Assembly (NCBI GenBank): GCA_034422515.1
Contig: DAOUJP010000020.1
Span: 65,590-129,589, forward strand
DNA length: 64,000 nt
Source of the DNA: Chloroflexota bacterium
GTDB lineage: Bacteria > Chloroflexota > UBA11872 > UBA12225 > JAJDUF01
Direction: 5' to 3'
How positions within the stretch are numbered: position 1 is the stretch's first letter; every line of letters starts with the position of its first letter. Position numbers and translations under genes: made by a program. The notes beneath the pieces are model-generated. The model ran no database searches, had not been told where the DNA came from, and worked only from the letters and a program-made list of their open reading frames with translations. Shown here in pieces: positions 8,018 through 26,839 of this stretch.

Positions 8018-8089
8018 CATTCGCACTGAGTCCCCGCATACTAGCCGGGAGGCGCTGTCATGGCTTCGCGTCGTGAGGTGGTTCAGCAA

Positions 8090-8118
8090 GGGTTGGAAAA
8101 CCAACCCTTTTCTTTTTT
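8090..8118 (+). terminator. Rho-independent terminator (GGGTTGG-AAAA-CCAACCC followed by TTTTCTTTTTT)
   Basis: Perfect stem with a tetraloop followed by a T-rich tract. This is unusual in such a GC-rich genome and lies in the lower-GC junction region. Confidence 0.6.
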
Positions 8119-8718
8119 GGATCCACCACCGCACGATCTACCAAACTGGACAAAATCCAGAACCTTTATGCTGCGTTTCAAGCTGACGGGACAGAATCGG
8201 TAGTCTGGCCGTCTCAATCTCTCCTGCTCTTGCCGCTCCATTCCTGCCAGGCTGACGCCTTCACGCTGGACCTCAAGGGAAATCTCACAGGACCTCATGT
8301 GAGTTAGTCATAGCACTGCGGCCGTAAGTCTGCTCGTGACACTACCACTCCACGGTCGTCGGCAGGCCGCGTTCTTGCGACTCCCGGCCCCGTCGACATC
8401 GCTAGGTAGAACGAACGGGCCGCAAACTCGCCTGTAGCAGCCCTGGCTGGCTCGGAGTATCATAATGGTGGAGTGGGAAGCGACACCAGCGTGTCCCCTT
8501 CGTCCCTTGGTCTGGGTTCGTCACGTGTGTGGCTGGATACAGCAACCGGATTCGAGCCGCTTTCGGCCCAGTTGTCCCAAGTGCATCGGTTCGGGAAACT
8601 CTCATAGGGGCCTCACGGCCAAAGGCCGCCGCCGCGAAATCGGGGGCAGTTCAGTTGGCATGGCAGACCGTATGCCACTGCCGATGAGGTAGGGACTGTC
8701 ATGGCGGCGTGCGGCTGT

Positions 8719-8733
8719 GATTTCCGGTCTGTC
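8719..8733 (+). promoter_or_regulatory. Conserved 15-nt motif GATTTCCGGTCTGTC (copy 1), ~70 nt upstream of the sigma-factor operon, followed at +30 by GAGAGTTGG
   Basis: Exact 15-mer repeated at 13692-13706 with the same downstream G(A/G)GTTGG box at +30/+31. Both copies are intergenic and precede an operon start. Confidence 0.5.
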
Positions 8734-8804
8734 TTTCTACGCGCGGTTAAAATTGAGAGTTGGTTGCATCTAGTCACCGAGCAGAACACGCTATGAGTTA
8801 GCAG

Positions 8805-9632
8805 ATGGGCCATGTGACCACAGAGCAAGATACATCGTGCTTGCCGGAGCCATTGACGCGCAAGAACGCGGATGGTGAGGTCTATTGCCGCCAGGCGGCT
8901 GTGGACAGGCAGATCCAGACGGCTCTTGGGCTTGACAGTGGGGAACTCCGAACCCGCTCCGAGGTGACGGACAAAGCGTCGCCCGACTTCCTCAAGGAAG
9001 AGGCGCTGGTCTATCTGATTCGACACTACCACCGGGCAGCGGATCAGGGCTGTGTGAACTTCCTGTCGGAGGCCCTACTTCGCCGCTGTGCCACCTGGAT
9101 CAGTCATCAACTGCACAGCTTGGATAATGAAGCGGCAGAGGAAGGGTATTCGGACGTCGTGACGCGACTGTTCGAACGGATCCTCGACTTAGACAGTGAC
9201 CGCGGCGACTTCCTCCAAGTCCGATTCTGGATGGTACTCAAGAAACTTGCCGTGGATGTCTTTGACAGACAGCTACGGCAGCTCACCCGTGGACGAGACA
9301 GCATCCCTCTGACAACTATTGCCGGACATGACGGCGAAGACGACAAGGCGGCAACACGTGGAGCTCGGTTGCGCACGCCGGGCGCGCTCGCGACACGGGC
9401 CGCCGAATCGGAGGCGATCGAGCGCACCGAAATCCGCGAGGCCCTGAGCCAGTTGGACGAGCCTCTTAGGTCAGCGTTCCTGCTACGGCATTTCGTGGGG
9501 TTGCCGATCGAAGATCAGGACCCAGCCGTGCATACGATTAGCCGGCGCTTCGGCAAGACGCCGCGCACCATCCGGAACTGGCTCGCTAGAGCGGGTAAGT
9601 GCTTGGCAATGTGGCGGGGAGGGCAGGGATGA
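8805..9632 (+). CDS. Sigma-70 family (ECF-like) RNA polymerase sigma factor
   Basis: The C-terminal region-4 HTH (LSQLDEPLRSAFLLRHFVGLPIEDQD...ISRRFGKTPRTIRNWLARAG) matches the sigma-70_r4_2 pattern, and the region-2-like segment is upstream. Its stop overlaps the next gene by 4 nt. Confidence 0.6.
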   Translation: MGHVTTEQDTSCLPEPLTRKNADGEVYCRQAAVDRQIQTALGLDSGELRTRSEVTDKASPDFLKEEALVYLIRHYHRAADQGCVNFLSEALLRRCATWISHQLHSLDNEAAEEGYSDVVTRLFERILDLDSDRGDFLQVRFWMVLKKLAVDVFDRQLRQLTRGRDSIPLTTIAGHDGEDDKAATRGARLRTPGALATRAAESEAIERTEIREALSQLDEPLRSAFLLRHFVGLPIEDQDPAVHTISRRFGKTPRTIRNWLARAGKCLAMWRGGQG

Positions 9633-10273
9633 ACAGACCAACCGAGCCTGAGCGGTTGGAGGGTGTACTCGACGCCTATGTGGCGTCTGGTGCCGGCCCG
9701 AATGCCGCGCTTGACGAGTGGATTCGGCGCTATCCGGAGTTTGAGCGAGAACTAATCGAGTTCGCGGCCAGTTGGAGCCTGATGAAATGGTTGCCTCACG
9801 CTCCTGACGCCGAGGAAGTTGACGAGACAACGCTGGTGCTGCGAGGAATGAGTGTCGTTCAGGACTTGCTCCACAGGCAGTCATCAGAGTCAGCCTCAGA
9901 CCCTGTCACGCCCATCGGGAGTCTGATAACGGAAGGGCGAGCACAAGGTTTGGATCCCCGCCGGTTGGCGCAGGCCGTTGGAGTGGGGGACAGCTTGCTG
10001 AGTAAGCTCGACCGCCGCTTAATCACCCCCGCCTCAATCCCGCAAGAGCTGATCGAGCGCCTTGCACAGGTTACGCAACGCAAGGTTACGACCATCACCG
10101 CCTATCTTCAGCAGGGCCCGACATTGACGGCTGCGGCTGAACATCGCTCCGAGCAAGCACCGAAGCTCATGGAGCCGGAGGATTTCTTTGATGCCGTTGG
10201 CGCCGATCCAACAATCAGTCGTGAGCAGGCTGACTACTGGTTCGCACTTGGGCGATCCATGGGTGCATTATGA
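9629..10273 (+). CDS. XRE-type HTH domain protein (ImmR-like repressor / anti-sigma-like adaptor candidate)
   Basis: Central HTH (LDPRRLAQAVGVGDSLLSKLDRRLI). Its 4-nt ATGA overlaps with the genes on both sides suggest translational coupling in a 3-gene operon. The Met at 9629 is preferred over the track start at 9599. Confidence 0.5.
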   Translation: MNRPTEPERLEGVLDAYVASGAGPNAALDEWIRRYPEFERELIEFAASWSLMKWLPHAPDAEEVDETTLVLRGMSVVQDLLHRQSSESASDPVTPIGSLITEGRAQGLDPRRLAQAVGVGDSLLSKLDRRLITPASIPQELIERLAQVTQRKVTTITAYLQQGPTLTAAAEHRSEQAPKLMEPEDFFDAVGADPTISREQADYWFALGRSMGAL

Positions 10274-13200
10274 GCCACTGGGGCGAAATAAGAAGGCGGG
10301 CGAGGGCGCAACGCGCCGAAGTGCTTCGAGAGACTAGGGGAGACTTGTCAGCTGAATCGTTGCTTACCGCGGCCGAAAGGTTGACCGGCTTCGAACGAAT
10401 CGGCCTGCCAGTTGGCGACTCGTTGCTGGACGGCGCTGATGCAAAACTCCAACACAACATGGAGCGGGTTTGGTTCAACCGCGAAGTCGAACCTAGGCTG
10501 GCTCGCTTCAATCAAGCCCACGAGTATGCACATCTCTGGTTACACCCCGAACGGGGCAACCAGCTAGAGTGTGGCCTTGATCCTGAGGCTGTTGAGGAAC
10601 CCCTACCCATTGGCGTGAATCGAGTAGAGGGGTATGGCCCTGAGGAGTTGCGAGAGCGTGAGGCGAACGTCTTTGCGCGGGAGTTCCTGCTCCCGACCGA
10701 TGTCCTACGCGAGTGGTACGAGACCGATAATGCAAGCGCGAATGAAGTTGCAGATAGACTGGGACTTCCAGAGGGGTTGGTCTTGCAGCAGATGGCGCGG
10801 GCGCTTCTTACGCCAGAAATCCCCTCTACGCACGTATCACCTGGCGATACAGACCAACGACCGTTAGACCCCAGCCAGGAGGAAGCTGCTCACGCCCCAC
10901 GCGGCCCCCTACTCTTGGAGGCCGGTCCAGGTACCGGCAAGACCCGTACCCTCATCGGACGGATCGTCTTTCTTCTTAAGCAAGAGGTGCCACCAACCGC
11001 GATACTTGCACTGACGTTCTCGAACCGCGCAGCTGAGGAGATGCGATCACGTGTGGCGGAGGCCGAACCAGCCGCCGCCCTCCGTATCTGGATTGGGACC
11101 TTTCATGCGTTCGGACTTGAGCTATTGCGCAAGTACGGTACACGACTAGGACTGCCGCCCCATATCAGCGTACTCGACCCATCTGAATCGATAGTCCTTG
11201 TGGAGCGCATGCTGCCCGAGTTGGACTTGGATTACTACCAAAACCTATATGACCCCACCTTCTATCTCCGGGACATCATGGCCGCGATCTCGCGCGCCAA
11301 GGACGAGTTGGTGGGGCCAGAGGAATACGCCGCACTCGCCGAGAGCATGCGCAATGAAGCGGCCACCCCCGAGGAGATCGAGAGGGCAGAGCGGACGATC
11401 GAGGTAGCACGGGTTTACACCGCCTACCAAGCAGCGCTTGACTGCGCCCATCTGCTTGATTTTGGCGACCTCATCTTCAAGGCTGTGTCGCTGCTCAGGG
11501 CACACGCCGATGTGCGAAACGCCCTCCGCAGCAGCTATCGTCACGTCTTGGTCGATGAGTACCAAGATGTCAACCGGGCCAGTGCCCTCCTCCTAAGAGA
11601 GATCGCGGGTGCCGGCGCTGGTCTCTGGGTGGTTGGAGATACGCGGCAGGCGATCTACCGGTTCCGGGGTGCTGCTCCGGCGAACATGCGGCACTTTAGC
11701 GAAGATTTCTCTGGCGCGATAGTGAAGACCCTCCGACGCAACTACCGGTCGCAGCCGGTGATCGTCGACGTGTTCGCCGGGCTGGCGCCTGAGATGCGCG
11801 CGGCACGAGGCGGACCGATCTTCATGCCCTGGGAGCCAAACCGATCGCTCTCCGGTGGGCACGTCTTGATGGAGGTTGCCGACGACCTGACTGCGGAGGC
11901 CGAGGGGTTGGCGAGGGAGATTGAGCGCCGGCACGCCGCCGGCATTCCTTACAGCGAGCAAGCGGTCCTGTGCCGCTCGCACACCAACCTTGGTAGGTTC
12001 GGAGCCGAACTCGAGCGTGTCGGTGTGCCTGTTCTGTACCTAGGCAATCTCTTTGAGCGGCCTGAGGTGCGTGACATGCTTGCCCTTTTGTCCCTCGCGT
12101 GCGAACCAGACGGGAACGGCTTGGTCCGCGTTGCGCGCTTTTCCGAATACAGAATCCCGCTCAACGACGTGCTCGCTCTAATTGAGCTGGCTCGCGACCG
12201 AGAGGTTCCCTTTCCGGAGGCTTTGGGCCTAGCGGGAGAAGCCGCGACGGTCTCGGCGCACGGACAAGCGCGGCTCGCCCTTTTGGCTCATCACCTTGAT
12301 GGTTTGCACCACGTTGGGCCCTGGAGACTGCTCGCGCACTACTTGTTCGACCGAAGCGGCTATCTACATCACCTCTTAGCCGACCAGTCCGTAGGGGGAC
12401 AGCAGCGCCTGCTCGCACTCTATCAACTCCTCCAGTTCGCCCACGAGCAGCGACCAGGGGTTCCCGGTGAGCCAGCCGACTCGAAGCTCCGCCTACTTCG
12501 TTACATTCGCCGGCTCGAGATCTATGGCGAGGAAAAGCCACTCCGGCAGGTACCAGTCTGGGCGGACGATATCGAGGCGGTCCGGCTGCTCACTGTCCAC
12601 GCGAGCAAGGGGCTTGAGTTTCGAGCGGTTTACCTACCGGCACTAGGCCGCGGCATCTTCCCGGCGAGCCGCCAAGCACAGACATGTCCGCCACCCACGG
12701 GTATGCTTGCTCCCGACCACGACGACCTGAGCAACCACGACGAAGAAGAGGAGTGCCTCTTCTTCGTCGCGCTATCCCGCGCTAGAGACATACTGTGCCT
12801 CTCCCGCGCCCGCCGGTACGGTGCCCGGAATAGCAATCCGTCAGCTCTGCTCGTCGAGATCGCTGATCTGTTACCTGCCGATCCGGGTGGCCAAGTTACT
12901 TGGCCATCCAGCGCACCGAGTCCGGCTGCTGCACCTGAGCCGATGCCGGCAAACGAGACTTACTTGGCGGCTGACCTGGACGTATACCTCCGCTGTCCCC
13001 GGCAGTACTTCTACGAGTCTGTTCTGGGGCTGAGTCGCCAGCGTGAGGACTCTGGATACGTCGAGTTTCACCGCTGTGTCTATCGCGTACTGCGCTGGAT
13101 GGCGGAGCAGCGTGCCTCCGGACAACCCGCTGATGAAGCCACGGCACTTGCATACCTAGCCCGGGTCTGGGAGGAGCAAGGGCCGCACGGGCATGTCTAT

Positions 13201-13671
13201 GAGGAGTTGTATCGTAATTCAGCTATTGCTCTGGTGCAGCGGGCGGCAAGACGGCCATTCACGTCACGTGGCGCCAAGACCCAGCCCCAGTGGGAGGTGC
13301 GAGTCCCGCTGGGTCGTGTTCGTTTCGTCCCGGACCACGTCGAGGTACTCAATGATGGCACTGAGATCGTTGAACGTATCCGTACTGGGCGTCCGACGAA
13401 GAGCGAAGCAGGAAAGGACATCTACGCCCTGTACGTGATGGCAGCCCGGGATGCCGAGCCACTCGTTCAACGGAGAGTGCAAGTACGATACTTGTCCACC
13501 GATGACGTGGAGCCAATCAACCTCAAGCCGCGAACCATCAAGACTCGGCTAAACCACTACAACGATGCTATCGCTGGGATCCTGCGCGATGATTTCTCGC
13601 CGCGTCCCAATGACCGTGTCTGTCCGCGCTGTCCTCACTATTTCATCTGTCCGCTAGGCGAGGACGCCTAA
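10270..13671 (+). CDS. Fusion protein: ImmA/IrrE-family Zn metallopeptidase (HEXXH) + UvrD/Rep-family SF1 helicase + C-terminal RecB/Cas4-like PD-(D/E)XK nuclease with an Fe-S cysteine cluster
   Basis: HEYAHLWLH (HExxH, DUF955-like) near the N-terminus. Walker A GPGTGKTRT, motif II VLVDEYQDVN and motif VI VHASKGLEFRAVYL of UvrD-like helicases. The C-terminal domain has an early Cys (YLRCPRQYFYE), a DIYALYV (QhxxY-like) motif and a terminal CPRCPHYFIC triad, as in Cas4/AddB nucleases. Confidence 0.7.
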   Translation: MSHWGEIRRRARAQRAEVLRETRGDLSAESLLTAAERLTGFERIGLPVGDSLLDGADAKLQHNMERVWFNREVEPRLARFNQAHEYAHLWLHPERGNQLECGLDPEAVEEPLPIGVNRVEGYGPEELREREANVFAREFLLPTDVLREWYETDNASANEVADRLGLPEGLVLQQMARALLTPEIPSTHVSPGDTDQRPLDPSQEEAAHAPRGPLLLEAGPGTGKTRTLIGRIVFLLKQEVPPTAILALTFSNRAAEEMRSRVAEAEPAAALRIWIGTFHAFGLELLRKYGTRLGLPPHISVLDPSESIVLVERMLPELDLDYYQNLYDPTFYLRDIMAAISRAKDELVGPEEYAALAESMRNEAATPEEIERAERTIEVARVYTAYQAALDCAHLLDFGDLIFKAVSLLRAHADVRNALRSSYRHVLVDEYQDVNRASALLLREIAGAGAGLWVVGDTRQAIYRFRGAAPANMRHFSEDFSGAIVKTLRRNYRSQPVIVDVFAGLAPEMRAARGGPIFMPWEPNRSLSGGHVLMEVADDLTAEAEGLAREIERRHAAGIPYSEQAVLCRSHTNLGRFGAELERVGVPVLYLGNLFERPEVRDMLALLSLACEPDGNGLVRVARFSEYRIPLNDVLALIELARDREVPFPEALGLAGEAATVSAHGQARLALLAHHLDGLHHVGPWRLLAHYLFDRSGYLHHLLADQSVGGQQRLLALYQLLQFAHEQRPGVPGEPADSKLRLLRYIRRLEIYGEEKPLRQVPVWADDIEAVRLLTVHASKGLEFRAVYLPALGRGIFPASRQAQTCPPPTGMLAPDHDDLSNHDEEEECLFFVALSRARDILCLSRARRYGARNSNPSALLVEIADLLPADPGGQVTWPSSAPSPAAAPEPMPANETYLAADLDVYLRCPRQYFYESVLGLSRQREDSGYVEFHRCVYRVLRWMAEQRASGQPADEATALAYLARVWEEQGPHGHVYEELYRNSAIALVQRAARRPFTSRGAKTQPQWEVRVPLGRVRFVPDHVEVLNDGTEIVERIRTGRPTKSEAGKDIYALYVMAARDAEPLVQRRVQVRYLSTDDVEPINLKPRTIKTRLNHYNDAIAGILRDDFSPRPNDRVCPRCPHYFICPLGEDA

Positions 13672-13691
13672 ACCTCACGGTGCCGGGCAGA

Positions 13692-13706
13692 GATTTCCGG
13701 TCTGTC
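13692..13706 (+). promoter_or_regulatory. Conserved 15-nt motif GATTTCCGGTCTGTC (copy 2), ~105 nt upstream of the Ubl-E2-JAB-E1 operon
   Basis: Identical to the motif at 8719-8733 and followed by TTAGGGTTGG at +31. It lies in the intergenic region between the helicase-nuclease gene and the Ubl gene. Confidence 0.5.
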
Positions 13707-13812
13707 CCTGCCCCAGCGATTGTCCTATTAGGGTTGGCAAGTGACACCCTGGCAGTCGCGGAGCGTCACTCACTTCAGCAACCCCACATTCCGTGTGAGA
13801 AAGGACAGACAG

Positions 13813-14334
13813 ATGAGTCAACCTGATGCTACAGACCACATCGAGCTCTTTATCCAGGGCGAGGGGATCCCCAAGATCGCGCTGGTGAAGGTACATCCCG
13901 AGTATACGGTCGCGGACCTCATCAAGGTGGCCCGCGAGCATAGCCTGAGCGTACCCGAGGGATCGGAGGTGTTTGTCCTCCTAGAGAACACCGACGCCCC
14001 CCTGCTGTTGGATGCGAAGATTGATGAGGTCGGCCTAGCCCCACGTAGCCGCGTGCATATCCATCGCTGTCGGCGAGTGGAGGTAACGGTCAATTTCAAC
14101 GCAGATCAACTCAAAGGATTCTTCCCACCATCGGCGACACTCGCGTGGGTCAAGAAGTGGGCAGTCGGCAAGGACGGCTTCGGCATGGCGGATGTGGATG
14201 CCACCGAGCACCTGCTTCAGATGTGCGGCTCGACTGACCGGCCTGACGAGGACGTGCATATCGGCACGCTAGTGAAGCTTTCGAACGGGACCCTTTGTTT
14301 CGATCTGGCCCCCAAACAGCGCGTAGAGGGATAA
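13813..14334 (+). CDS. Ubiquitin-like (tandem beta-grasp, ISG15-like) protein ending in Gly (BilA-like / polyUbl)
   Basis: 173 aa, large enough for two beta-grasp units. The first (HIELFIQGEGIPKIALVKVHPEYTVADLIKVAREHSL...VFVLLEN) resembles ThiS/MoaD/Ub folds. The C-terminal residue is Gly (…RVEG*). It is immediately followed by E2-, JAB- and E1-like genes. Good RBS (AAAGGA) before the ATG at 13813. Confidence 0.55.
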   Translation: MSQPDATDHIELFIQGEGIPKIALVKVHPEYTVADLIKVAREHSLSVPEGSEVFVLLENTDAPLLLDAKIDEVGLAPRSRVHIHRCRRVEVTVNFNADQLKGFFPPSATLAWVKKWAVGKDGFGMADVDATEHLLQMCGSTDRPDEDVHIGTLVKLSNGTLCFDLAPKQRVEG

Positions 14335-14337
14335 GGC

Positions 14338-14826
14338 ATGTCTAAGGGCGTAATGGGGGTAGACGAGCAGGTGTTTCGCGCGCACCTCGCAGCCGGCGCG
14401 TTCCAGAGTGGCGTCGACCGGGGCCGCTGGCGCTTGCTCGCGCTCGACTGGCCACATGCCCTGATCGCCATTCAGGCTGCCGAGAGGGCCGGCGGCCCAG
14501 CCGAATATGCGCTGCGCTTCGAGTGCATGAACTACCCTCAAACACCGCCGACAGCTCAGCCATGGGACGCTGAGAGAAACACGCCGCTTGCACCAGCCCG
14601 CTGGCCAACCGGAACAAGGCGAGTATCGCTTGCCTTCAATCCCGGATGGAAGCACGGGGGCTGCCTATATCTGCCTTGTGACCGGCTTTCGATTGAGGGC
14701 CACGATGCTTGGCGGACCCAGCATCCTTCGATGATCTGGTCGCCAGCGAGCGACATCACACATTACCTGAGGATTGTCCATGATCTTCTCACTTCGAGCG
14801 ATTATTCGGGCCCTCGCGGCGCCTGA
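14338..14826 (+). CDS. E2-like (UBC-fold) ubiquitin-conjugating enzyme homolog (BilB-like)
   Basis: 162 aa with a candidate catalytic Cys in the AFNPGWKHGGCLYLPCD segment (analogous to HPN...C of E2s). Assigned mainly from its conserved position between the Ubl and the JAB/E1 genes. Confidence 0.45.
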   Translation: MSKGVMGVDEQVFRAHLAAGAFQSGVDRGRWRLLALDWPHALIAIQAAERAGGPAEYALRFECMNYPQTPPTAQPWDAERNTPLAPARWPTGTRRVSLAFNPGWKHGGCLYLPCDRLSIEGHDAWRTQHPSMIWSPASDITHYLRIVHDLLTSSDYSGPRGA

Positions 14827-15304
14827 GCACCGGCTGAGTTGTCCCAGAGGAGTCTGGCGACGAGGGATCGCTGAAGTTGCACGCCGGGGAGAGGGACGGC
14901 ACGAGAGTGGCGCCTTCCTGCTTGGTCGCCGGCATGGTCTGCGCGGACACGTCGTGCGATTTGCCTACTACGATGACTTCGACCCATCCTGCCTTAAATC
15001 CGGCATTGTCGTGTTCGATGGAGCGGGGTTCGGACCGCTGTGGCAACTCTGCCGGCAGACCGGGCTGAGTGTCCTTGCCGATCTGCACACGCATGGCGGC
15101 TCTGGCCGGGCACGTCAGAGCGAACTTGACAGGGACAACCCCATGATCGCCCAGCCCGGTCACGTAGCGCTCATCGTCCCGAAATTTGCTCGCGACTTCA
15201 GGATGGAGGATGTGAGTATCTACGAGTACCTCGGTGGTCATAGTTGGCGCGATCACGGCAGTGCCCGTGGTGGGCGCTTCTTCTACACAGGGATATGGGC
15301 ATGA
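14774..15304 (+). CDS. JAB/MPN (JAMM) metalloprotease, deubiquitinase-like (BilD-like)
   Basis: Complete JAMM motif: upstream Glu (HESGAFLLG), then HTHGGSGRARQSELD (HxHx8Sx2D). The ORF overlaps the E2 gene and the true start may be downstream. Its stop overlaps the E1 start (ATGA). Confidence 0.65.
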   Translation: MSMIFSLRAIIRALAAPEHRLSCPRGVWRRGIAEVARRGEGRHESGAFLLGRRHGLRGHVVRFAYYDDFDPSCLKSGIVVFDGAGFGPLWQLCRQTGLSVLADLHTHGGSGRARQSELDRDNPMIAQPGHVALIVPKFARDFRMEDVSIYEYLGGHSWRDHGSARGGRFFYTGIWA

Positions 15305-16701
15305 CAGTTACCTCAAACGTTGGACCGGATCAGTTGCACCGGCTCGTGAAGTTGGCGCTCGACACCGGCGAGGCAGCGAGCCTCGATGAGGCCCAGCGGC
15401 TCTTTGGTAGCTATCGCCTCGGCATCGTGGTCGGAAGCGATATCGCGCATTCCCCGACGCTGCAGGCAGCCGTGTTGACCGCCGTCAACGCGGGCCGTCG
15501 CAGTTTTCTTGGTGGTGTGTCCGTCGACGGCGCAGTTGATGTGCCGCTCCTCATCCCGTGGGGTCGCTGTCGCACGCTAGAGGAAGCCATCGTGGACCTA
15601 CGGGGGACCAGCATGGCTGTTGTCCCCGGGATTCCGCGCATCGTGATCGGCGACACATCCGCACCGTCAGGCGAGGCGGAGTTCGCCGTGCGCGCGACTT
15701 TCGATGGGTGGTGTGGGGGCATCATACCTCTTGACCAAGGTCACCGTCTGCCAGAGCGCCAAGAGTGTGTTCCGGCCGGTGTGCTCGCCGGGGCGCTCGG
15801 AGTTGCCGAGGCATTTCAGTTCGTGCGGGGCGACAGCGCTATTGCGGGCCGGCGGGATGTTGGGCTGTCATTGTGGCAACCTGAAGCCGACACCAATTGG
15901 CTCGCTGCTGGCGAGCGGGGGCCGACTTTGGAGAGGCTGCCAGCGAGAGCTTGGCTGATCGGCCTCGGTCATCTTGGGCAGGCGTTTCTGTGGACACTCG
16001 GACTCCTGCCATATGCGGCGCCTGGAGACGTGAGTCTCGTCCTCCAAGACTTCGATGCACTCGTCGAGGCAAACGACAGTACCTCACTACTCACGACACG
16101 GGCTAGCTTCGGTGTGAAGAAGACACGGGCCATGGCCCGCTGGTGCGAAGCGCGCGGGTTCCGCACTTCGATTGTGGAACGCCGATTCGCTGCCGACTTT
16201 CGGGTTGCGGCAGACGAACCAAGCGTTGCCCTGTGTGGAGTTGACAACGCGCTGGCCCGAGCCGACCTCGAGGATGTTGGCTTCGGCCGCGTCATTGAGG
16301 CCGGGCTCGGCGCTGGCACGCGGGAGTACCTTGCGTTTCAGATACACACTTTCCCGGCACGCCGAGCCGCGAGATGCCGCTGGGGAGCGGACGTAGATCA
16401 CTTGAACGACGGGAATGACAATGCCGATAATCCGGCGTACCGCGCATTAGCCCACGAGGGGCTCGATGATTGTGGAATCACGACGCTGGCCGGACGCACT
16501 GTCGGCGCGTCATTTGTGGGAGCGGTCACGGCCGCAGTGGTCGTCGCCGAACTCATGAGGATGGCAATGGGTGGACCCCGATACGAGGTCGTGGATGGGA
16601 GCCTGCACTCACTTGAACTGCGCCAGGCGGTGGTGTGTGCCGAAGGGGCACCGTTCAATCCAGGAACGGCGGCTGCAACTCTCAAGACCGACGGTCAGTG
16701 A
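15301..16701 (+). CDS. E1-like ubiquitin-activating enzyme (ThiF/MoeB/HesA superfamily; BilC-like)
   Basis: Rossmann GxGxxG (AWLIGLGHLGQAFLWTLGLL) and ThiF-like downstream segments (GVDNALARADLEDVGFGRVIEAGLGAG). Co-operonic with the Ubl, E2 and JAB genes. Confidence 0.6.
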   Translation: MTVTSNVGPDQLHRLVKLALDTGEAASLDEAQRLFGSYRLGIVVGSDIAHSPTLQAAVLTAVNAGRRSFLGGVSVDGAVDVPLLIPWGRCRTLEEAIVDLRGTSMAVVPGIPRIVIGDTSAPSGEAEFAVRATFDGWCGGIIPLDQGHRLPERQECVPAGVLAGALGVAEAFQFVRGDSAIAGRRDVGLSLWQPEADTNWLAAGERGPTLERLPARAWLIGLGHLGQAFLWTLGLLPYAAPGDVSLVLQDFDALVEANDSTSLLTTRASFGVKKTRAMARWCEARGFRTSIVERRFAADFRVAADEPSVALCGVDNALARADLEDVGFGRVIEAGLGAGTREYLAFQIHTFPARRAARCRWGADVDHLNDGNDNADNPAYRALAHEGLDDCGITTLAGRTVGASFVGAVTAAVVVAELMRMAMGGPRYEVVDGSLHSLELRQAVVCAEGAPFNPGTAAATLKTDGQ

Positions 16702-17096: not shown

Positions 17097-20000
17097 TTGG
17101 ATACTGCTACCGTGATCTGTGAAGGACAGGTGCTGACCGGGCCGCTGTTCAGCGAGCCGATGCGGGTGGAGACGGTGCGCCCCAACGGCCCCGATTCCGT
17201 GGAGGCCGGCTTGGTCGGGCAGCAGACGGAGCGGTTCCGGCGGGTGACGCTGACGGCAGCCGACATCGCAAGCCTCTCCGTCGCCAGTGCTGCGCTTACC
17301 TACGACGGAGACGGACAACTCCTGCGGCTCGGCCTCCAGGCGTATACCCTCGGCATCGCCCACGAGTTCGACCCCTACTTCGGCCTCTCCATCTCGCGGG
17401 TGGACCCGCTGCCCCATCAACTCGAAGCGGTCTACGACTACTTCATGAAGCTCCCCAGCGTGCGGTTCCTGCTGGCCGATGATGCCGGTGCCGGCAAGAC
17501 GATTATGGCTGGCCTGTTGATCCGCGAGCTCAAGCTGCGTGGGTTGGCCGAGCGGACTCTGGTCGTGTGCCCAGCCAACCTGACCTTTCAGTGGCAGCGC
17601 GAGTTGAAAGAGAAGTTCGATCAGCAGTTCCTGGTACTGAAGGGGAGCGATGTCCGCGACCAGTTTGGCGTCAACCAATGGCTCAGCCAAAAGCAGGTGA
17701 TTACTTCCCTCGATCTGGCCAAGCGCGAGGATATCTTGCCGGGCTTGCGACAGGTGCGCTGGGACCTGGTCATCGTAGATGAGGCCCATCGCATGTCAGC
17801 GCGAGACGAGACGCACAAGAGCCAACGCTACCGGCTGGGCGAGCTCCTCCGGGACAGCGCCGACAACTTGCTGCTTCTGACCGCCACGCCGCACAAGGGC
17901 GATCCGCACAACTTCACCCTCTTCCTGCAATTGCTCGACCAGGACGCCTATGCCGACGTGCAGTCCATCCGCGCGGCGATGGATAAGCAGCAGGCGCCCT
18001 TCTACCTGCGACGGACGAAGGAGGCGATGGTCTACTTCCCAGAACGTCAGCCGGACGGGGAGTGGGCCGCCCGGCCCGTGTTCACGAAGCGGATCACCCA
18101 CACGGCTGGCTTTGCTATCGCCGGGGATGAGTTCGAGCTGTACCAGGAGGTGACGCGGTTCGTGAAGCGGCAGAGTGCCCGCGCGGCGGCGCAGGGTGAC
18201 GACCGGCGAGCACGCGCCGTCGGCTTCCTCATGTCCCTCTACCAGCGGCGGCTCGCTTCCAGCACCTACGCCATGCGCCGCTCCCTGGAAAATCGGGCGA
18301 AGCGCCTGGCGGAGAACCTCAAGCAGGCCGAGGTCCTGGCACGGACAGTACCGCCCGACTTCTCCAACTGGGAAGCGGAGGAGTTCGAGGAGCTAGAGGA
18401 CCACGAACGCGAGCGCTTGGAGCGACTGCTGGACGCCGTCACGCTGGCCCGCAACGCCGAGGAGGTGCGCCGGGAGATCACGGCGTTGCAGGGCCTCGCC
18501 AGCACAGCCAAGTCCCTCGAAGGGTCCGGGAGCGAAGCGAAGTTGAGCCGGCTCAAGGAAATACTGCGCGAGCAAGGATTCTTCGACCACCCGGACCAGC
18601 AGTTGCTCATCTTCACCGAGTTCAAGGACACCCTCGACTACCTCCTGGAACGGTTGCAGGCCTGGGGGTTCCGCGTGGGAAGCATCCATGGCGGCATGAA
18701 GCCGGGGTCACGCGACGAACCAGGCACCCGGCTCTACACCGAGCAACAGTTCCGGGAGGGCGCCATCCAGGTGCTGGTGGCCACCGAGGCCGCCGGCGAG
18801 GGCATCAACCTCCAGTGCTGCCACATCCTCTTCAACTACGATATTCCCTGGAACCCCAATCGGCTGGAACAGCGTATGGGACGTATCCACCGCTACGGCC
18901 AGCGCTTCGATTGTCTCATCTTCAACTTTGTGGCCACCAACACCATCGAGGGCCGCGTGCTCCAGCGGCTGCTCGATAAGCTCCAAGAGATCAGGGACGC
19001 CCTCGAAGATGATGCCGTCTTCAATGTCGTCGGGGAGGTGTTGCCCGCCGCTCACGTGGATCGCGTGTTTCGGGACTACTACGCTGGCCACCTGGGCGAC
19101 GCTGACCTGGAAGACCGGCTCCTGCGGGACGTGGACGAGCGCCACTTCCGGGCCATTTGCCAGAATGCGCTGGAGGGGTTGGCGGCCAAGGGGCTCAACC
19201 TGGAGCTGCTCGTCGAGCGCCGCGCCCGCGCCCAAGCGCGCCGGATGGTGCCCGAGACCATCGCCCGCTTCCTGGCCGAGAGTGCTGGCAGCGCGTCCCT
19301 CCCCCTTCCCCCCGTGCGCCGCTGGCCACACACGTTTCAGCCGGGCCGGACGCCAACCGCCTTGCGGCGCTACGAGGGCGAGCCGGACTGGCAGCTCCCG
19401 GCGCTGGCGGTGCGCTACCCGCGAATTTCGACGGACCGGCACACGGCGGAAGCGCACAATCTGGAATGGGTTACGCCCGGCCATCCACTGTTCGAAGCCC
19501 TGCGCCGCCACGACCTGGAGCTGGCCCGGGAGGCCTTCGCCAGGGGGGCCTGCTTCCACTCCCTCCAACACGAGACCCCGGCGCGCCTCGACTGCTACAA
19601 GGCGCAGATCGTGGACGGCCTCGGCCACATCATCCATGAGCGGCTGTTCACCGTGGAGTTGGCGGAAGGCCGAGAACCCCGCCTCCGGGAGCCGGACATC
19701 CTCGGCAACCTGACGCCTGCCGCCGCCCCGGACGGCTTGCCTGCCGTGGCTACCCTGCCGGAAGCGACCGAGTGGCTGCACTCGGAGACGCTCGGACCGT
19801 TCATTGACGAGGTGCGTGCGGAGCGCCTGCCGGAGGTCGAGCGTATCGCCGATCATGTCGAAGTGGCCTTGGGCGAGGTGCTGTCCCGAGTTGACCAGGA
19901 GGTCGGCCGCGCCGGCGACGAGGTGCGGAATCAGATCACCGGTGCCGAGGGCCGCTTCGCCCAGGCCGAGGCCCGGCAGGATGAGGCACTGGCACGCCGC

Positions 20001-20540
20001 GAGCGGCGACGGCGCGAACTGACCCAGCAACGGGCGCTGACGCTCCAGGGCGTGGAGCGGCTGGCCAGCGTGCTGATCCTCCCACATCCTGAACGGGGCA
20101 GTGACGAGGTCCAACGGCTGCGGCCCAACCCGGAGACCGAGCAGGTCGCCATGCGCGTGGTCATGGCGCACGAGCAGGCCCAGGGACATCTCGTCACCGA
20201 CGTTCACGAGCAGAACCTGGGCTACGACGTGACCAGCTTGAATAAGGAGACCGGCGAGTCGCGCCTGATCGAGGTGAAGGGCTTGGCCGCTGCCGCTGGC
20301 ACTATCCTGCTGACGCCCAACGAGCGCCGCGTGGCGGAAGACCGCCGCGATTGCTACTGGCTGTACGTCGTCACGAATTGCGCCAGAGAGCCGCGGCTCC
20401 AGGACCCGATCCGGGACCCGGCCCGGTTCCCCTGGCACGAGGTCAGCAAGGTGCAGCATTATTGGCTGGAGCTGAACGCCATGACCCAACCCATGCAGAT
20501 CCGAGAGCAACGGGCGCCATACGGAGGACGGGACTCTTGA
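17097..20540 (+). CDS. SNF2-family helicase with a C-terminal DUF3883-like restriction-endonuclease-fold domain ('anti-phage-associated helicase')
   Basis: TTG start with a GAGAGGA RBS. SNF2 motifs: ADDAGAGKT (I), LVIVDEAHRMS (II), LLLTATPHKG (III), helicase-C (QRMGRIHRYGQ). The C-terminal TPNERRVAEDRRDCYWLYVVTNC...DPARFPWHEV matches DUF3883. Confidence 0.7.
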   Translation: MDTATVICEGQVLTGPLFSEPMRVETVRPNGPDSVEAGLVGQQTERFRRVTLTAADIASLSVASAALTYDGDGQLLRLGLQAYTLGIAHEFDPYFGLSISRVDPLPHQLEAVYDYFMKLPSVRFLLADDAGAGKTIMAGLLIRELKLRGLAERTLVVCPANLTFQWQRELKEKFDQQFLVLKGSDVRDQFGVNQWLSQKQVITSLDLAKREDILPGLRQVRWDLVIVDEAHRMSARDETHKSQRYRLGELLRDSADNLLLLTATPHKGDPHNFTLFLQLLDQDAYADVQSIRAAMDKQQAPFYLRRTKEAMVYFPERQPDGEWAARPVFTKRITHTAGFAIAGDEFELYQEVTRFVKRQSARAAAQGDDRRARAVGFLMSLYQRRLASSTYAMRRSLENRAKRLAENLKQAEVLARTVPPDFSNWEAEEFEELEDHERERLERLLDAVTLARNAEEVRREITALQGLASTAKSLEGSGSEAKLSRLKEILREQGFFDHPDQQLLIFTEFKDTLDYLLERLQAWGFRVGSIHGGMKPGSRDEPGTRLYTEQQFREGAIQVLVATEAAGEGINLQCCHILFNYDIPWNPNRLEQRMGRIHRYGQRFDCLIFNFVATNTIEGRVLQRLLDKLQEIRDALEDDAVFNVVGEVLPAAHVDRVFRDYYAGHLGDADLEDRLLRDVDERHFRAICQNALEGLAAKGLNLELLVERRARAQARRMVPETIARFLAESAGSASLPLPPVRRWPHTFQPGRTPTALRRYEGEPDWQLPALAVRYPRISTDRHTAEAHNLEWVTPGHPLFEALRRHDLELAREAFARGACFHSLQHETPARLDCYKAQIVDGLGHIIHERLFTVELAEGREPRLREPDILGNLTPAAAPDGLPAVATLPEATEWLHSETLGPFIDEVRAERLPEVERIADHVEVALGEVLSRVDQEVGRAGDEVRNQITGAEGRFAQAEARQDEALARRERRRRELTQQRALTLQGVERLASVLILPHPERGSDEVQRLRPNPETEQVAMRVVMAHEQAQGHLVTDVHEQNLGYDVTSLNKETGESRLIEVKGLAAAAGTILLTPNERRVAEDRRDCYWLYVVTNCAREPRLQDPIRDPARFPWHEVSKVQHYWLELNAMTQPMQIREQRAPYGGRDS

Positions 20541-22255
20541 CCCCAGAACGCCTCCAGGCACTCATCGCCGGCGGCGAAACCCTCGCCGTAGAGTTCAAAG
20601 GCGAGGCGGCCGCGCCCTTGGGGGATCGGGAGCTTGTCGAAACGGTCGTCTGTCTGGCTAACCGGAGCGACGACGGCCCCGGCTGGCTGCTGGTCGGAGT
20701 TGAGGATGACGGCCACGTGAGCGGCGCCCGTGCCCGCCACGAGACCGGGGGGATCGACCCCGTGCGTATCCAGGCGCTCGTGGCGAACCGCACGCGCCCC
20801 CCGCTTACCACGCGCGTCGCAGTGGATTCGAGCGGCGGACGGGATATCCTCATCATCGAGGTCCCCGCCGTTCACCGGCCCGTCGGTACGGCGGACGGAC
20901 GCTACCTGCGGCGCGCCATCGGCGGAGATGGCAAGCCATCCTGTGTGCCGTTCCACTTCCACGAGATGCAGTCGCAGCAGGCTGATCGCGGGATGCTCGA
21001 TCATGCTGCACTCCGGCTGGACGGCATCGGGATGGACGCGCTCGATCCGCTGGAGTTCGAACGCTACCGGCGCACAATCCGAGAGCACCGGCACCGTGGG
21101 GACAACGCGTTGCTCGATCTCAGCGACGTGGAACTGGCCAAGGCCCTGGGCGCGGTGGAGCACACCAATGGTGCCGTGACCGTCCGGGTGCTGGGCCTGC
21201 TGCTCTTCGGACGGGAGGACGCGCTGGCTGCCGCCCTGCCGGCGCACGAGGTGGCGTTCCAGGTGCTCGCCGGCAACGACGTGCAGGTCAACGACTTCTT
21301 GCGCTGGCCGCTGCTCCGGGTCATGGAAGAGCTGGCGGCCCGCTTTGAGGCGCGCAACCGCGAGCAAGAGGTCCACGTGGGCATGATCCGCGTCGGAGTG
21401 CCCGATTATCCCGCCCGCGCTTTTCGCGAGGGGGTCGCCAATGCCTTGATCCACCGGGATTACACCCGTCTTGGGGCCGTGCATGTGCAGTGGCGGGAAG
21501 ACCGGCTGGAAATCTCGAACCCCGGCGGCTTCCCGCTGGGAGTGCGCCTGGACAACCTGCTGGTCACTGCGCCGCGCCCCCGCAATCCGCTGCTGGCCGA
21601 TGCGTTCAAGCGCGCCGGCATCGTCGAACGCACCGCGCGGGGCATTGATACCATCTTCTACGAACAGCTTCGCAATGGCCGCCCCGCCCCCTCCTACGAC
21701 CGCAGCACCGAGGCCGGCGTGACCCTGGTGCTCCCCGGCGGCGTAGCCCACCTCGGATTCGTGCGGCTCGTGGTGGAGGCGGGCCGGGAGAGCAGCCCGC
21801 TTTCCCCGGACGAGCTGCTGCTCCTGACCGGGTTACAGCGGGAGCAGCACATAACGGCCGGCGAGGCAGCCGCAATGATACAAAGGGGGGCAGCGGATGC
21901 GGAGCATCTCCTGATGCAGTTGGGGCAGCGCGGTCTCGTCACCGTGCGGGGTTCGCACCGGCGGCAGGGGTTCCGGCTATCGGAAGCTGCGGCCCGGCAG
22001 CTTGGTGACCGCGTGGATGCCCAGCGCGGGCGCGCTGCACCAATCCGGCATGACGAGCTGGTGCGCCGGTACGTTGCGAGTCATGGCTCGATTTCACGCA
22101 AGGAAGCCGCGCGGCTCTGCGCCATCTCCGACTCGCGGGCCTATAGACTGTTGAAGCGGCTGGAGTCGGCCGGGGTCCTCCGGCGCATTGGCACACGCGG
22201 CCGGAACGTCCGCTATGAGCAAAACGCCGAGAAACGCACGGCGCGCGTTTCCTAA
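20537..22255 (+). CDS. AlbA_2 (Schlafen-like 'divergent AAA') + HATPase_c_4 domain protein (putative nucleic-acid-binding regulator)
   Basis: The N-terminal ETLAVEFKGE signature is typical of AlbA_2 (PF04326). The C-terminal part is winged-helix-like. The TTG start at 20537 overlaps the helicase stop (TTGA). Confidence 0.55.
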   Translation: MTPERLQALIAGGETLAVEFKGEAAAPLGDRELVETVVCLANRSDDGPGWLLVGVEDDGHVSGARARHETGGIDPVRIQALVANRTRPPLTTRVAVDSSGGRDILIIEVPAVHRPVGTADGRYLRRAIGGDGKPSCVPFHFHEMQSQQADRGMLDHAALRLDGIGMDALDPLEFERYRRTIREHRHRGDNALLDLSDVELAKALGAVEHTNGAVTVRVLGLLLFGREDALAAALPAHEVAFQVLAGNDVQVNDFLRWPLLRVMEELAARFEARNREQEVHVGMIRVGVPDYPARAFREGVANALIHRDYTRLGAVHVQWREDRLEISNPGGFPLGVRLDNLLVTAPRPRNPLLADAFKRAGIVERTARGIDTIFYEQLRNGRPAPSYDRSTEAGVTLVLPGGVAHLGFVRLVVEAGRESSPLSPDELLLLTGLQREQHITAGEAAAMIQRGAADAEHLLMQLGQRGLVTVRGSHRRQGFRLSEAAARQLGDRVDAQRGRAAPIRHDELVRRYVASHGSISRKEAARLCAISDSRAYRLLKRLESAGVLRRIGTRGRNVRYEQNAEKRTARVS

Positions 22256-22343
22256 ACGCACTCGTGCTATTAAACGCACGCGAACGGCTCATTAGCAGCG
22301 GCCGCTCAACTGGAGAGGGCATCCGATTCTCAGGAAGGTTTGA

Positions 22344-23210
22344 ATGAAAAGGATCGACGACAGTACGTTAGAAACGGTCGCTGAGTTGGTGTGTGGCTCA
22401 GGCGAGGGTGCTGGTGGAGGCTATTCGTCTCCGGGTCCTTATCGAACAATGGGCGAAATCAACGCATTCTTCCGCCGTGCGGGAGTGAGGCCTAGGGGTC
22501 AATCGTCAACCAGAAAGTGGTTCGTGTTGGAGTCTTTGCAATCAGTCAATGGGACAAATGGTCTGGAGAAGATACTGCTGAGAATATCATCTCCAAAAGA
22601 GTGTCGTGGCGATTCAGATTTGACGCAAAAAGTGGTTGACCACCTGAACGACGCTCTGCAGGTAGAGGGGCTGGAGGTCTACCTAGTTGGTGTTGATCCT
22701 CGAATTCGGGAGCGCAAGGCCTCTGCAAGTGTTCCCAGGGTGCAAGCGGCACCGTCAGAAGTTGCTCCCGATTTCCATCGCCTAGTAGAGGATAGCTCAT
22801 TGGCGGCAATATTATTACTGCGGTGGGAGGAAGCTCAGAAATGCGTCAATGCAGAAGCTTATCTCTCTGCTGTAGTAATGATGGGTAGCATCTTAGAGGG
22901 TGTGTTATTGCACAAAGTCGAAACAAATCCTGCAGATGCAAACCGAGCCAAGGAATCGCCGAAGAATCCGACAACTGGAAAACCTAAACAGTTCCACGAG
23001 TGGGGTCTCTCTGCCTTGATTGATGTTGCTCACGAATTAGGCTGGCTTCAGGGGGACGTTAGGCGCTTCAGTCATGCGTTGCGGGATTCTCGCAACATCG
23101 TCCATCCTTACATGGAAAGGTTGCTATCCGATAGACCGGATCGTGATACCTGTTCAATTTGCTGGCAGGTTGTTCGTGCGGCTGTTGCCGACTTGTTGGA
23201 AATAGACTGA
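22344..23210 (+). CDS. Hypothetical protein with a C-terminal HEPN-like Rx4-6H motif (RDSRNIVH); noticeably lower-GC gene
   Basis: The ORF sits in the AT-richest stretch of the window and is embedded between defence genes. The motif match alone is weak evidence. Confidence 0.35.
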   Translation: MKRIDDSTLETVAELVCGSGEGAGGGYSSPGPYRTMGEINAFFRRAGVRPRGQSSTRKWFVLESLQSVNGTNGLEKILLRISSPKECRGDSDLTQKVVDHLNDALQVEGLEVYLVGVDPRIRERKASASVPRVQAAPSEVAPDFHRLVEDSSLAAILLLRWEEAQKCVNAEAYLSAVVMMGSILEGVLLHKVETNPADANRAKESPKNPTTGKPKQFHEWGLSALIDVAHELGWLQGDVRRFSHALRDSRNIVHPYMERLLSDRPDRDTCSICWQVVRAAVADLLEID

Positions 23211-23215
23211 ATGAC

Positions 23216-26191: not shown

Positions 26192-26225
26192 TTACTGGAC
26201 GCACTTTGGAACACGGAGGGATGAC

Positions 26226-26483
26226 ATGACGACCAATCCCGAGCTCCTCCAGCGCATCACCGCTCGGCCGGGCGTCTTTGGTGGCAAGCCGATCATCCGC
26301 GACATGCGTATTGCCGTGGAGCATGTGCTGGGGATGCTTGCAGCCGGTGATTCTGCGGAGACGATTCTCCGGGAATATCCGGTCCTGGAACCTGAAGACA
26401 TCCAGGCGTGCCTGCTTTTTGCTCACCGCTCAATGGCCGGCGAGCATGTGTATGAACGTGTACCCGTGAGGGAAGCGTCTTGA
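26226..26483 (+). CDS. DUF433 family protein (antitoxin-like partner of DUF5615)
   Basis: 86 aa, RITARPGVFGGKPIIRDMRIAVEHVLGMLAAGDSAETILREYP, the typical DUF433 fold. Its stop overlaps the next gene's TTG start. Confidence 0.6.
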   Translation: MTTNPELLQRITARPGVFGGKPIIRDMRIAVEHVLGMLAAGDSAETILREYPVLEPEDIQACLLFAHRSMAGEHVYERVPVREAS

Positions 26484-26839
26484 AGTTCCTGCTCGACGTA
26501 TGCGCGGCGTCCCACAGCATGCATACGACGCTAACGGACTTGGGCCACGATGTCCTATCAGCTTTGGAAAGTGCCCCACTAGCCACCGATGAAGAATTGC
26601 TCGCCCTCGCAACTGAGCAGCAGCGGGTGCTTATTACCGAGGACAAGGACTTTGGCGAGTTGGTATTTGTACGTCGCTTGCCGCACCCATGCATCATTCG
26701 CTTTGTCGGCATGTCGGTCGCGGAGAAAGTGGCCGCAATGGGTGATCTGATCGAGTACCATGCGGATGCAATGTATGAGCGGAGTATGATCGTGGTGACA
26801 CAGAGTCGGGTTCGGATACGTCGCGGAGCACGCGGTTAG
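26480..26839 (+). CDS. DUF5615 (PIN-like / Mut7-C RNase fold) toxin-like protein
   Basis: MKFLLDVCAA...VLITEDKDFGEL is characteristic of DUF5615, which pairs with DUF433 in type II TA-like cassettes. Confidence 0.55.
   Translation: MKFLLDVCAASHSMHTTLTDLGHDVLSALESAPLATDEELLALATEQQRVLITEDKDFGELVFVRRLPHPCIIRFVGMSVAEKVAAMGDLIEYHADAMYERSMIVVTQSRVRIRRGARG

Follow-up and report, generated by a model that had tools for sequence, protein, structure and literature searches.

A sigma factor, a helix-turn-helix protein and a peptidase-helicase fusion form a conserved cassette upstream of Bil operons and may act as a protease-gated sigma switch

A 64,000-nucleotide (nt) window of contig DAOUJP010000020.1 from a Chloroflexota bacterium, by which we mean the whole stretch of DNA analysed, carries a three-gene cassette encoding an extracytoplasmic function (ECF)-like sigma factor, a protein with an XRE-type helix-turn-helix (HTH) domain, and a fusion of an M78 peptidase, a UvrD-type helicase and an Fe-S domain. 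A complete bilABCD operon follows on the same strand, and the cassette is quite likely to be its transcriptional controller. A promoter-like motif pair shared by the two transcription units and the synteny of the cassette in its relatives support such a regulatory role, which an earlier reading of the DNA letters alone (the sequence-only reading) had proposed. For the model as a whole, in which a protease gates the sigma factor, we estimate a probability of roughly 60%. The cassette itself is a real observation and lies far beyond chance. Its genes and the two promoter-like sites are:

8805-9632, + strand: gene of the ECF-like (group 4) sigma factor, 275 residues (aa)
9629-10273, + strand: gene of the XRE-type HTH regulator, 214 aa
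10270-13671, + strand: gene of the M78-UvrD-Fe-S fusion, 1133 aa
8713-8748, + strand: P_sigma, promoter-like, with the -35-like GATTTCCGGTCTGTC (8719-8733), 9 nt, and the -10-like GCGGTT (8743-8748)
13686-13721, + strand: P_bil, promoter-like, with GATTTCCGGTCTGTC (13692-13706), 9 nt, and GCGATT (13716-13721)

The open reading frames (ORFs) and the ATGA overlap read from the sequence at each of the two junctions, sigma/HTH and HTH/fusion, confirm the three-gene operon with translational coupling described in the sequence-only reading. The length of 214 aa for the HTH protein, counted from the ATG at 9629, is common to most of the ~120 close homologs listed.

Paired promoter-like sites

The 15-mer GATTTCCGGTCTGTC is present in exactly two perfect copies in the 64 kb, at 8719 and 13692 on the same strand, and no direct repeat of the region ranks above this pair. 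Downstream of each copy, a spacer of 9 nt leads to GCG(G/A)TT, which gives a bipartite element of the form TTTCCGGT(T/C)T-N11-CGATT(A). P_sigma is located 57-92 nt upstream of the ATG of the sigma gene, and here the longer repeat GGCTGTGATTTCCGGTCTGTC spans 8713-8733. P_bil begins 15 nt past the stop codon of the fusion and ends 92 nt before the ATG of bilA, with the corresponding longer repeat GGCAGAGATTTCCGGTCTGTC at 13686-13706.

The same pairing is observed in relatives of the cassette. Among the metagenome loci described below, the consensus TTTCCGGTTTt-N11-CgAtT(a) is identical for 27 sites upstream of sigma genes and 47 sites past fusion genes. TTCCGGT was found in 22 of 37 sigma-upstream search windows (~1.4 expected by chance) and in 40 of 63 post-fusion search windows (~2.5 expected by chance), each ~280-290 nt long, at a background of 0.135 per kb-strand. 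The letters of the motif differ between loci: an Acidobacteriota locus (L003) has TTTCCGGTTT...CCGGTTGACT upstream of sigma and TTTCCGTTCG...CCGGTTGACT past the fusion stop, a Chloroflexota locus (L005) has TTTCCGGTTT-N12-CGATTA at both sites, and a Caulobacter locus (L011) has CTTCCGGTTTTT-N..-TCGCT at both. Paired sites are also present in Collimonas and in gammaproteobacterial relatives.

With its long -35-like box, a gap of 15 nt between CCGGT and CGATT and a position 50-110 nt upstream of start codons, the motif pair fits a sigma-70-family promoter, as would be expected of an autoregulated ECF-type sigma factor with one target operon. No sigma-70-type promoter was found beside the cassette. 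The sequence-only reading had the sigma factor turn on the adjacent defence operons. For bilABCD this is most likely the case, as the motif is shared by P_sigma and P_bil in the window and in dozens of relatives; the claim does not extend to the Hma genes further downstream, upstream of which no copy of the motif was found.

A third conserved block, TAGGG, follows the -10-like CGATT at a distance of ~7 nt in each of the two promoter sets (~13729-13735 in the window); it could mark the region of the transcription start or be contacted by a regulator. In relatives linked to Bub operons, a second copy of the motif is located within the sigma ORF, ~215 nt before its stop codon (L004:4992, L006:6972, L008:6956, L013:7077, L079:6990), where it overlaps the codons for D-P-x-[Y/F]-R...A-A-I-D. 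The intra-ORF and the intergenic copies co-vary from locus to locus, with TTTCCGGTT twice in L004 and TTACCGGTC twice in L006, and this co-variation suggests an internal promoter embedded in the sigma coding sequence of the Bub-linked relatives.

Conservation of the cassette and its linkage to ubiquitin-like operons

A metagenome scan with a family-specific C-terminal motif gave 464 relatives of the fusion, and the best 80 were scored together with the genome loci, 91 loci in total. The M78 domain is present in all 67 loci in which the N-terminus of the fusion lies inside the contig. A sigma gene is found upstream in 57 of 60 loci and an HTH gene in 59 of 60; both are thus conserved partners of the fusion, a point on which the sequence-only reading had itself invited refutation. 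In the genome collection, the order sigma-HTH-fusion is seen in Alpha-, Beta- and Gammaproteobacteria, Acidobacteriota and Chloroflexota.

Downstream of the fusion, 48 of 63 loci carry Bil (BilABCD for instance in L001, L003, L005, L007 and L011) and six carry a Bub-type operon. The Bub-family operons, as in L004, L006, L008, L009 and L079, comprise multiubiquitin, Prok-E2_E, JAB-ThiF or ThiF, and DUF6527. The downstream genes of the nine exceptions include Wadjet (DUF2397/DUF2398; DUF3375), a SMODS-domain gene and an SNF2 helicase, and in two of the nine a Bub-like operon is located upstream in divergent orientation. Being linked to several different immune operons, the cassette behaves in the same way as the known Cap regulators. 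The loci upstream of Wadjet, of the SMODS-domain gene (resembling the cyclic oligonucleotide-based anti-phage signalling system, CBASS) or of the SNF2 helicase are L101:1212-4057, L120:8877-10367, L088:2665-3624 and L087:2475-5827.

Three further loci are on plasmids: the cassette is found with Bil on Rhizobium phaseoli pRphaN831c (L161, NZ_CP013566, 5922-13671), and with Bub on a Klebsiella pneumoniae IncFII/IncU plasmid, beside Tn7-like transposition genes (L162, CP120875, 130573-137480), and on an Acinetobacter johnsonii plasmid (L163, NZ_CP043309, 14143-21350). Homologs of the C-terminal domain of the fusion occur on 44 Acinetobacter plasmids. In the plasmid records the sigma and HTH genes are labelled 'hypothetical protein'. 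In clinical and rhizobial bacteria, the cassette and a ubiquitin-like operon travel together on plasmids that are conjugative or mobilizable.

In the window, the operon downstream of the fusion is a complete BilABCD, overlooked in the sequence-only reading, which starts ~140 nt past the fusion and is contiguous from 13813 to 16701 on the + strand:

13813-14334, + strand: bilA (ubiquitin-like protein), PADLOC BilA 1.1e-46, aligned from ORF residue 33
14338-14826, + strand: bilB (E2-like), PADLOC BilB 1.5e-66, Pfam DUF7665 1.5e-61
14774-15304, + strand: bilC (JAB deubiquitinase-like), PADLOC BilC 6.8e-61, Pfam Prok-JAB E=0.001
15244-16701, + strand: bilD (E1-like), PADLOC BilD 6.5e-170

The genes for the ubiquitin-like protein, E2, JAB and E1 are present in the order bilA-B-C-D of Bil. 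As the start of bilA we prefer the ATG at 13813 to the GTG at 13741; a Shine-Dalgarno-like GAGAAAGGA is located upstream.

The near-exclusive linkage to two ubiquitin-like systems may also be explained if the fusion were a working part of the ubiquitin-like pathway, either recruiting Bil/Bub conjugation to phage DNA or nucleoprotein or being itself a conjugation target, while the sigma factor and the HTH protein would only regulate the fusion. The fact that the fusion is always co-directional with the ubiquitin-like operons and within ~150 nt of them agrees with this explanation. We nevertheless consider it improbable. Bil is a bacterial ISG15-like ubiquitin-conjugation defence, and BilABCD alone protects E. 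coli (Hör et al.), hence the effector chemistry does not involve the cassette. Some relatives are found beside the Wadjet, SMODS and SNF2 genes without any ubiquitin-like genes, and the shared promoter motif as well as the CapP/CapH-like pair described below indicate transcriptional control. Finally, CapK/CapS, which are known regulators, are biased alike, with 231 of 443 adjoining Bub (CapK/CapS paper).

The peptidase-helicase fusion

The domains of the 1133-aa fusion are:

10447-10788, + strand: M78 (CapP/IrrE/ImmA-type) Zn-peptidase domain, HEYAH at nt 10519-10533, then E..ANVFAREFLLP
10864-12873, + strand: UvrD/PcrA-type superfamily 1A (SF1A) helicase core, with GPGTGKT, DEYQD, VGDxRQAIYRFRGA, NYRS and TVHASKGLEF intact
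12973-13653, + strand: AdnA/AddB/Cas4-like Fe-S domain with a degenerate active site, PDDEXK_1, AdnA profile match

In Pfam the protein matches Peptidase_M78 (PF06114; residues 60-173, E=5.5e-12, 46 bits against a cutoff of 22), UvrD-helicase (residues 199-480, E=1.6e-69), UvrD_C (E=1.8e-28) and PDDEXK_1 (residues 902-1128, E=3.3e-13). No GAF domain was matched in Pfam, and from residue 199 onward the matches are UvrD-helicase, UvrD_C and PDDEXK_1. More than 120 full-length homologs (54-100% identity) have essentially the same domain set. In an alignment of 12 homologs covering the same range of identity, no variation is seen in HExxH (H84/E85/H88), Walker A (GPGTGKT), DEYQD, the four cysteines C909, C1118, C1121 and C1127, or the SF1 motifs I, Ia, II, III, IV, V and VI; H84/E85/H88, E129 and E138 are also invariant among 16 diverse members. 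The Pfam domains and the invariant motifs confirm the fusion of an HEXXH (DUF955/ImmA-like) peptidase to a complete UvrD helicase, as read from the letters.

A search of the PDB with the single sequence of the peptidase domain gave a weak match to CapP, and a family profile was needed for a clear assignment. The profile of the N-terminal 195 residues matches CapP (7t5t, E=9.7e-6) and IrrE (3dte, E=9.8e-5), and the HExxH and E..AN.FA..LLP of the fusion align to those of both structures.

The helicase region is best matched in PADLOC by GajB (1.4e-77). In NCBIfam it matches PcrA (2.4e-95), but it scores under the equivalog cutoffs of PcrA, UvrD and Rep and is hence no orthologue of these helicases.

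For the C-terminal domain, a single-sequence search of the PDB gave no match, and again a family profile was needed, which matches the nuclease domain of mycobacterial AdnA (E=2.5e-4). In the profile alignment the catalytic VVVDLKTGK of AdnA is paired with vvrRlRTGr of the fusion family. Motif III of the fusion reads R1036-I-R1038 (nt 13375-13383) in place of (D/E)xK; the position of the catalytic Asp (R1036) is Arg in at least 90% of the family members, while that of the catalytic Lys (R1038) is R, K or Q across the family. Motif II D1022 and C909, C1118, C1121 and C1127 are kept and are invariant in 17 diverse members. As both the Asp and the Lys of motif III are lost to Arg, the C-terminal domain is probably not a nuclease. 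Of the Fe-S PD-(D/E)XK nuclease in the sequence-only reading, the PDDEXK_1 fold, the four cysteines and the motif II Asp therefore stand, while the loss of motif III speaks against the catalytic activity, and an active Cas4-like nuclease was ruled out on the same grounds. The mutant of the 'nuclease Asp' that had been suggested for challenge assays becomes moot, since the acid and the lysine of motif III are absent. Most likely the domain is a non-catalytic Fe-S module, which plausibly binds DNA ends or single strands. A second deposited AdnA sequence, which probably represents a nuclease-dead construct, has Ala in place of the catalytic Asp. No homologs of the C-terminal domain were found in 50,697 phage records.

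The similarity of the helicase to GajB and the AdnA-like C-terminal domain, together with the location of the window's cassette in a defence island with Hma further downstream, raise the question of whether the cassette works on its own in helicase-based defence or repair, in the manner of Gabija GajB or of AdnAB, and is a mere neighbour of Bil. This is highly improbable: GajA and a second AdnB-like subunit are missing, motif III of the nuclease is lost, and an M78 peptidase, an HTH protein and a sigma factor have no role in Gabija or AdnAB. The near-universal synteny with a downstream immune operon across phyla and the shared promoter motif also disagree with an independent system.

The sigma factor and the HTH protein

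The 275-aa protein matches Sigma70_r4_2 in Pfam (E=2.9e-8, 33.6 bits against a cutoff of 25.7), and its family profile matches the sigma4 domain of SigL in the PDB (~E=1e-3). In an AlphaFold2 model with a predicted local distance difference test (pLDDT) score of 76, an N-terminal extension (~1-60) is followed by sigma2-like helices (65-165), a disordered linker (166-207) and sigma4 (208-273). The best Foldseek matches of this model are all ECF sigma factors, sigmaE (1or7_A, E=3.9e-4, 208 columns), AlgU, SigL, SigH and SigK; the probability is 1.00 for sigmaE, AlgU and SigL, and the 208 aligned columns exceed a lone sigma4 domain. The sigma-70/ECF-like factor of the sequence-only reading is borne out by these matches, and based on the model we take the protein to be a group-4 sigma factor that is divergent and extended by ~60 residues at its N-terminus.

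The 214-aa protein encoded by the second gene has no significant Pfam match. In its structure model (pLDDT 78), an N-terminal helical region (6-54) precedes a five-helix domain (99-161, pLDDT >90), a disordered loop (162-180) and two C-terminal helices (186-211). Two parts are of particular relevance:

9923-10111, + strand: XRE/Cro-C1-type HTH domain, residues 99-161
10145-10162, + strand: part of the disordered loop with a near-invariant Pro, R173-S-E-Q-A-P178

The HTH domain is closest in structure to the DNA-binding domains of CapH, SinR, P22 c2, ImmR and DdrO. The predicted DNA-binding fold of the protein is thus upheld, and a CapP/IrrE-like peptidase next to a CapH/ImmR/DdrO-like HTH protein fits the protease-substrate pair that had been suspected; the HTH protein is predicted to be the substrate of the peptidase. 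Conservation was computed over 63 distinct family members. The best-conserved positions are V13, L14, Y35, P36 (60/60) and L42 in the N-terminal region, A/S174 and P178 (61/63) in the loop, and a W-L pair at the C-terminus. The HTH part itself is only moderately conserved, while few parts of the protein are as conserved as the N-terminal helical region. A Pfam search at E<=1 with 22 members gave weak matches to HTH_31, HTH_26 and HTH_3 only.

Proposed mechanism

In the proposed mechanism, the HTH protein of the resting cell would hold sigma-dependent transcription off, either by binding the sigma factor via its N-terminal helices or by binding DNA. The helicase/Fe-S module would load on DNA ends or single-stranded DNA, originating from phage genomes or from damage, and this loading would activate the fused peptidase, by analogy to the effect of single-stranded DNA on CapP and IrrE. 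The peptidase would then cleave the HTH protein, likely in the disordered loop R173-S-E-Q-A-P178 and just before R173. The sigma factor would recognise TTTCCGGT/CGATT and transcribe its own operon, in a positive feedback, as well as bilABCD. IrrE, too, cleaves immediately before an Arg. CapP cleaves F82|R83, and single-stranded DNA activates both CapP and IrrE (Lau et al. 2022).

As to how the HTH protein would keep the operon silent, its features and those of the promoters point both ways. Sequestration of the sigma factor is favoured by the conserved N-terminal region, by the order of the genes with the sigma factor before the regulator, and by the lack of a dyad. Operator binding is favoured by the CapH-like HTH and by the lack of an anti-sigma signature. 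In a classical CapH/CapP wiring of this latter kind, the HTH protein would be an operator-bound repressor of P_sigma and P_bil, and its cleavage would de-repress them; the sigma factor would not be sequestered and would provide orthogonal promoter specificity. The canonical XRE fold, the absence of any detectable anti-sigma domain and the position of the TAGGG block just downstream of the -10-like element are in agreement with such a repressor, but dyad symmetry around the promoters is not above that of shuffled controls, and the N-terminal helices are more conserved than the HTH, as would be expected for a conserved protein partner. Moreover, a sigma-then-regulator order with translational coupling is typical of sigma/anti-sigma pairs. 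On balance, we regard the repressor wiring as conceivable but unlikely.

Several observations weigh against a protease-gated sigma switch. Peptidase cleavage, DNA sensing and sigma activity are all steps that we infer. The motif could in principle be an operator instead of a promoter, and dyads or inverted repeats around both sites are no more frequent than in shuffled controls. The second motif copy within the sigma ORF of the Bub-linked relatives complicates a simple picture of autoregulation. An anti-sigma role of the HTH protein, part of the sequence-only reading, found no direct support: no anti-sigma Pfam family was matched at E<=1 by any of the 22 members, and hhalign gave a probability of 0.3% for the N-terminus of RseA. 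No Pfam match to Sigma70_r2 (sigma2) was obtained for the 275-aa protein, and TIGR02937 reaches 30.9 bits, under its cutoff of 42.9. The structure models of the sigma factor and the HTH protein are based on shallow alignments of members at least 50% identical to the query, with pLDDT values of 76-78. Lastly, the bias of 54 of 63 loci to ubiquitin-like systems is also compatible with a functional, not purely regulatory, link.

Surroundings of the cassette

Upstream of the cassette, the preceding unit ends in an intrinsic terminator:

8088-8118, + strand: intrinsic terminator of the upstream unit, 9-bp stem with 5 GC pairs, then a T-run

As this terminator closes the upstream unit, the cassette opens a new transcription unit. 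No tRNA and no Rfam match was found in or beside the cassette. Neither a convincing ORF nor a tRNA or Rfam match was found in the ~600 nt between the terminator and P_sigma (8119-8712). The G+C content is ~0.60 at ~8-14 kb (~0.62 up to 18 kb), compared to ~0.65-0.69 in the preceding 8 kb, and given this fall an acquired island may have its left border in the segment 8119-8712, or may have left a scar there.

Past bilD, a candidate Hma (helicase-methylase-ATPase) system spans 17097-29753, which makes the region a defence island:

17097-20540: HmaA (SNF2 + NOV_C), PADLOC 4e-175
23159-26191: HmaB (DUF1156 methylase), PADLOC 6.6e-115
26955-29753: HmaC (DUF499), PADLOC 6.3e-96

Between HmaA and HmaB, a Schlafen AlbA_2/HATPase_c_4/HTH_28 protein (20351-22255) and a 288-aa ORF without a family match (22344-23210) are encoded.

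Significance

How costly anti-phage systems stay silent and are then induced is a general question. The controller families described so far, CapW/BrxR, CapH+CapP and CapK+CapS, all work by de-repression. If our model is true, the cassette would add a positive, sigma-based output with a defined promoter, and a motor protein as the sensor in place of a passive single-stranded-DNA-binding domain. It would then, to our knowledge, be the first case in which a DNA-translocating sensor gates a sigma-factor switch. Whether it represents a distinct fourth class of controller, in which an ATP-driven helicase sensor lets the peptidase destroy the HTH inhibitor, a private autoregulated sigma factor is freed and Bil or Bub is turned on, is a tentative proposal, for which we see somewhat less than even odds.

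The cassette is the commonest neighbour of the Bil operons of the fusion family and also adjoins Bub on the Klebsiella and Acinetobacter plasmids; it therefore bears on when bacterial ubiquitin-like immunity is deployed. If the model is true, it would be a natural regulator of Bil systems, which so far have been studied only as four-gene operons. The sigma factor and its promoter could also serve synthetic biology as an orthogonal pair inducible by DNA damage or phage.

Comparison with known systems

Small cassettes upstream of many defence operons, including Bil and Bub, are also formed by CapW/BrxR and CapK+CapS, which respond to DNA damage or single-stranded DNA. Their sensing and output chemistry, a WYL domain in CapW/BrxR and a kinase with a STAS-wHTH partner in CapK+CapS, is unrelated, acts by de-repression and involves neither a sigma factor nor a helicase.

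A UvrD-type SF1 motor followed by a RecB/Cas4-like domain is likewise found in AdnAB/AddAB, with the four-Cys Fe-S signature in AdnA. The fusion differs from these in being a single polypeptide without a partner subunit, in its N-terminal peptidase and in the change of the motif III Asp/Lys to Arg. AdnAB-type repair was ruled out, as the partner subunit and motif III are missing. In Gabija defence, DNA termini are sensed by GajB, which is UvrD-like. No PADLOC match to GajA was obtained near the fusion, whose neighbours are the sigma factor, the HTH protein and BilA-D, and membership in Gabija was ruled out for a GajB-like helicase without GajA.

With ECF pairs of the sigmaE-RseA type the cassette shares a two-domain sigma factor that is co-transcribed with and coupled to the next gene, and an apparent autoregulation; proteolysis of an inhibitor would free the sigma factor here as well. 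In contrast to RseA, the presumed inhibitor is cytoplasmic and carries an XRE HTH and no recognisable anti-sigma domain, and a soluble fusion with a DNA helicase takes the part of the protease. With its consensus TTTCCGGT/CGATT, the promoter also differs from the AAC/CGT pattern of usual ECF promoters.

The closest known system is CapH+CapP (Lau et al. 2022) with its relatives DdrO/IrrE(PprI) and ImmR/ImmA, which likewise comprise an HExxH M78 Zn-peptidase and an adjacent XRE-HTH protein, beside an immune operon. The common logic is the DNA-triggered proteolysis of a transcription regulator, which for the cassette we infer. CapP and IrrE carry a GAF sensor after the peptidase, whereas the fusion has ~950 residues of UvrD helicase and inactive AdnA-like Fe-S domain at this place. 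CapH, ImmR and DdrO have their HTH at the N-terminus and an oligomerisation domain at the C-terminus; in the HTH protein of the cassette, with 214 aa and extra N- and C-terminal regions unlike CapH, the HTH is central (99-161) and follows a conserved helical region of ~90 residues. Furthermore, a third component, a dedicated sigma factor that has a promoter motif of its own, is nearly constant here, and the cassette lies upstream of the regulated operon in the same orientation and not in a divergent one.

The sequence-only reading held this architecture to be undescribed. No description of the cassette was found in the searchable literature, in which Bub surveys may have counted such loci as CapH+CapP, and neither a helicase nor a sigma module is mentioned in the surveys published on Bil type II, Bub and CapK/CapS regulators. 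The claim has to be qualified in one respect, as Lau et al. 2022 list a sigma-70-family factor ('sigma-70 present') beside CapH+CapP in 24 CBASS loci, which was not studied there. Control of a defence operon gated by a protease is known, while the helicase sensor and the sigma output would be new.

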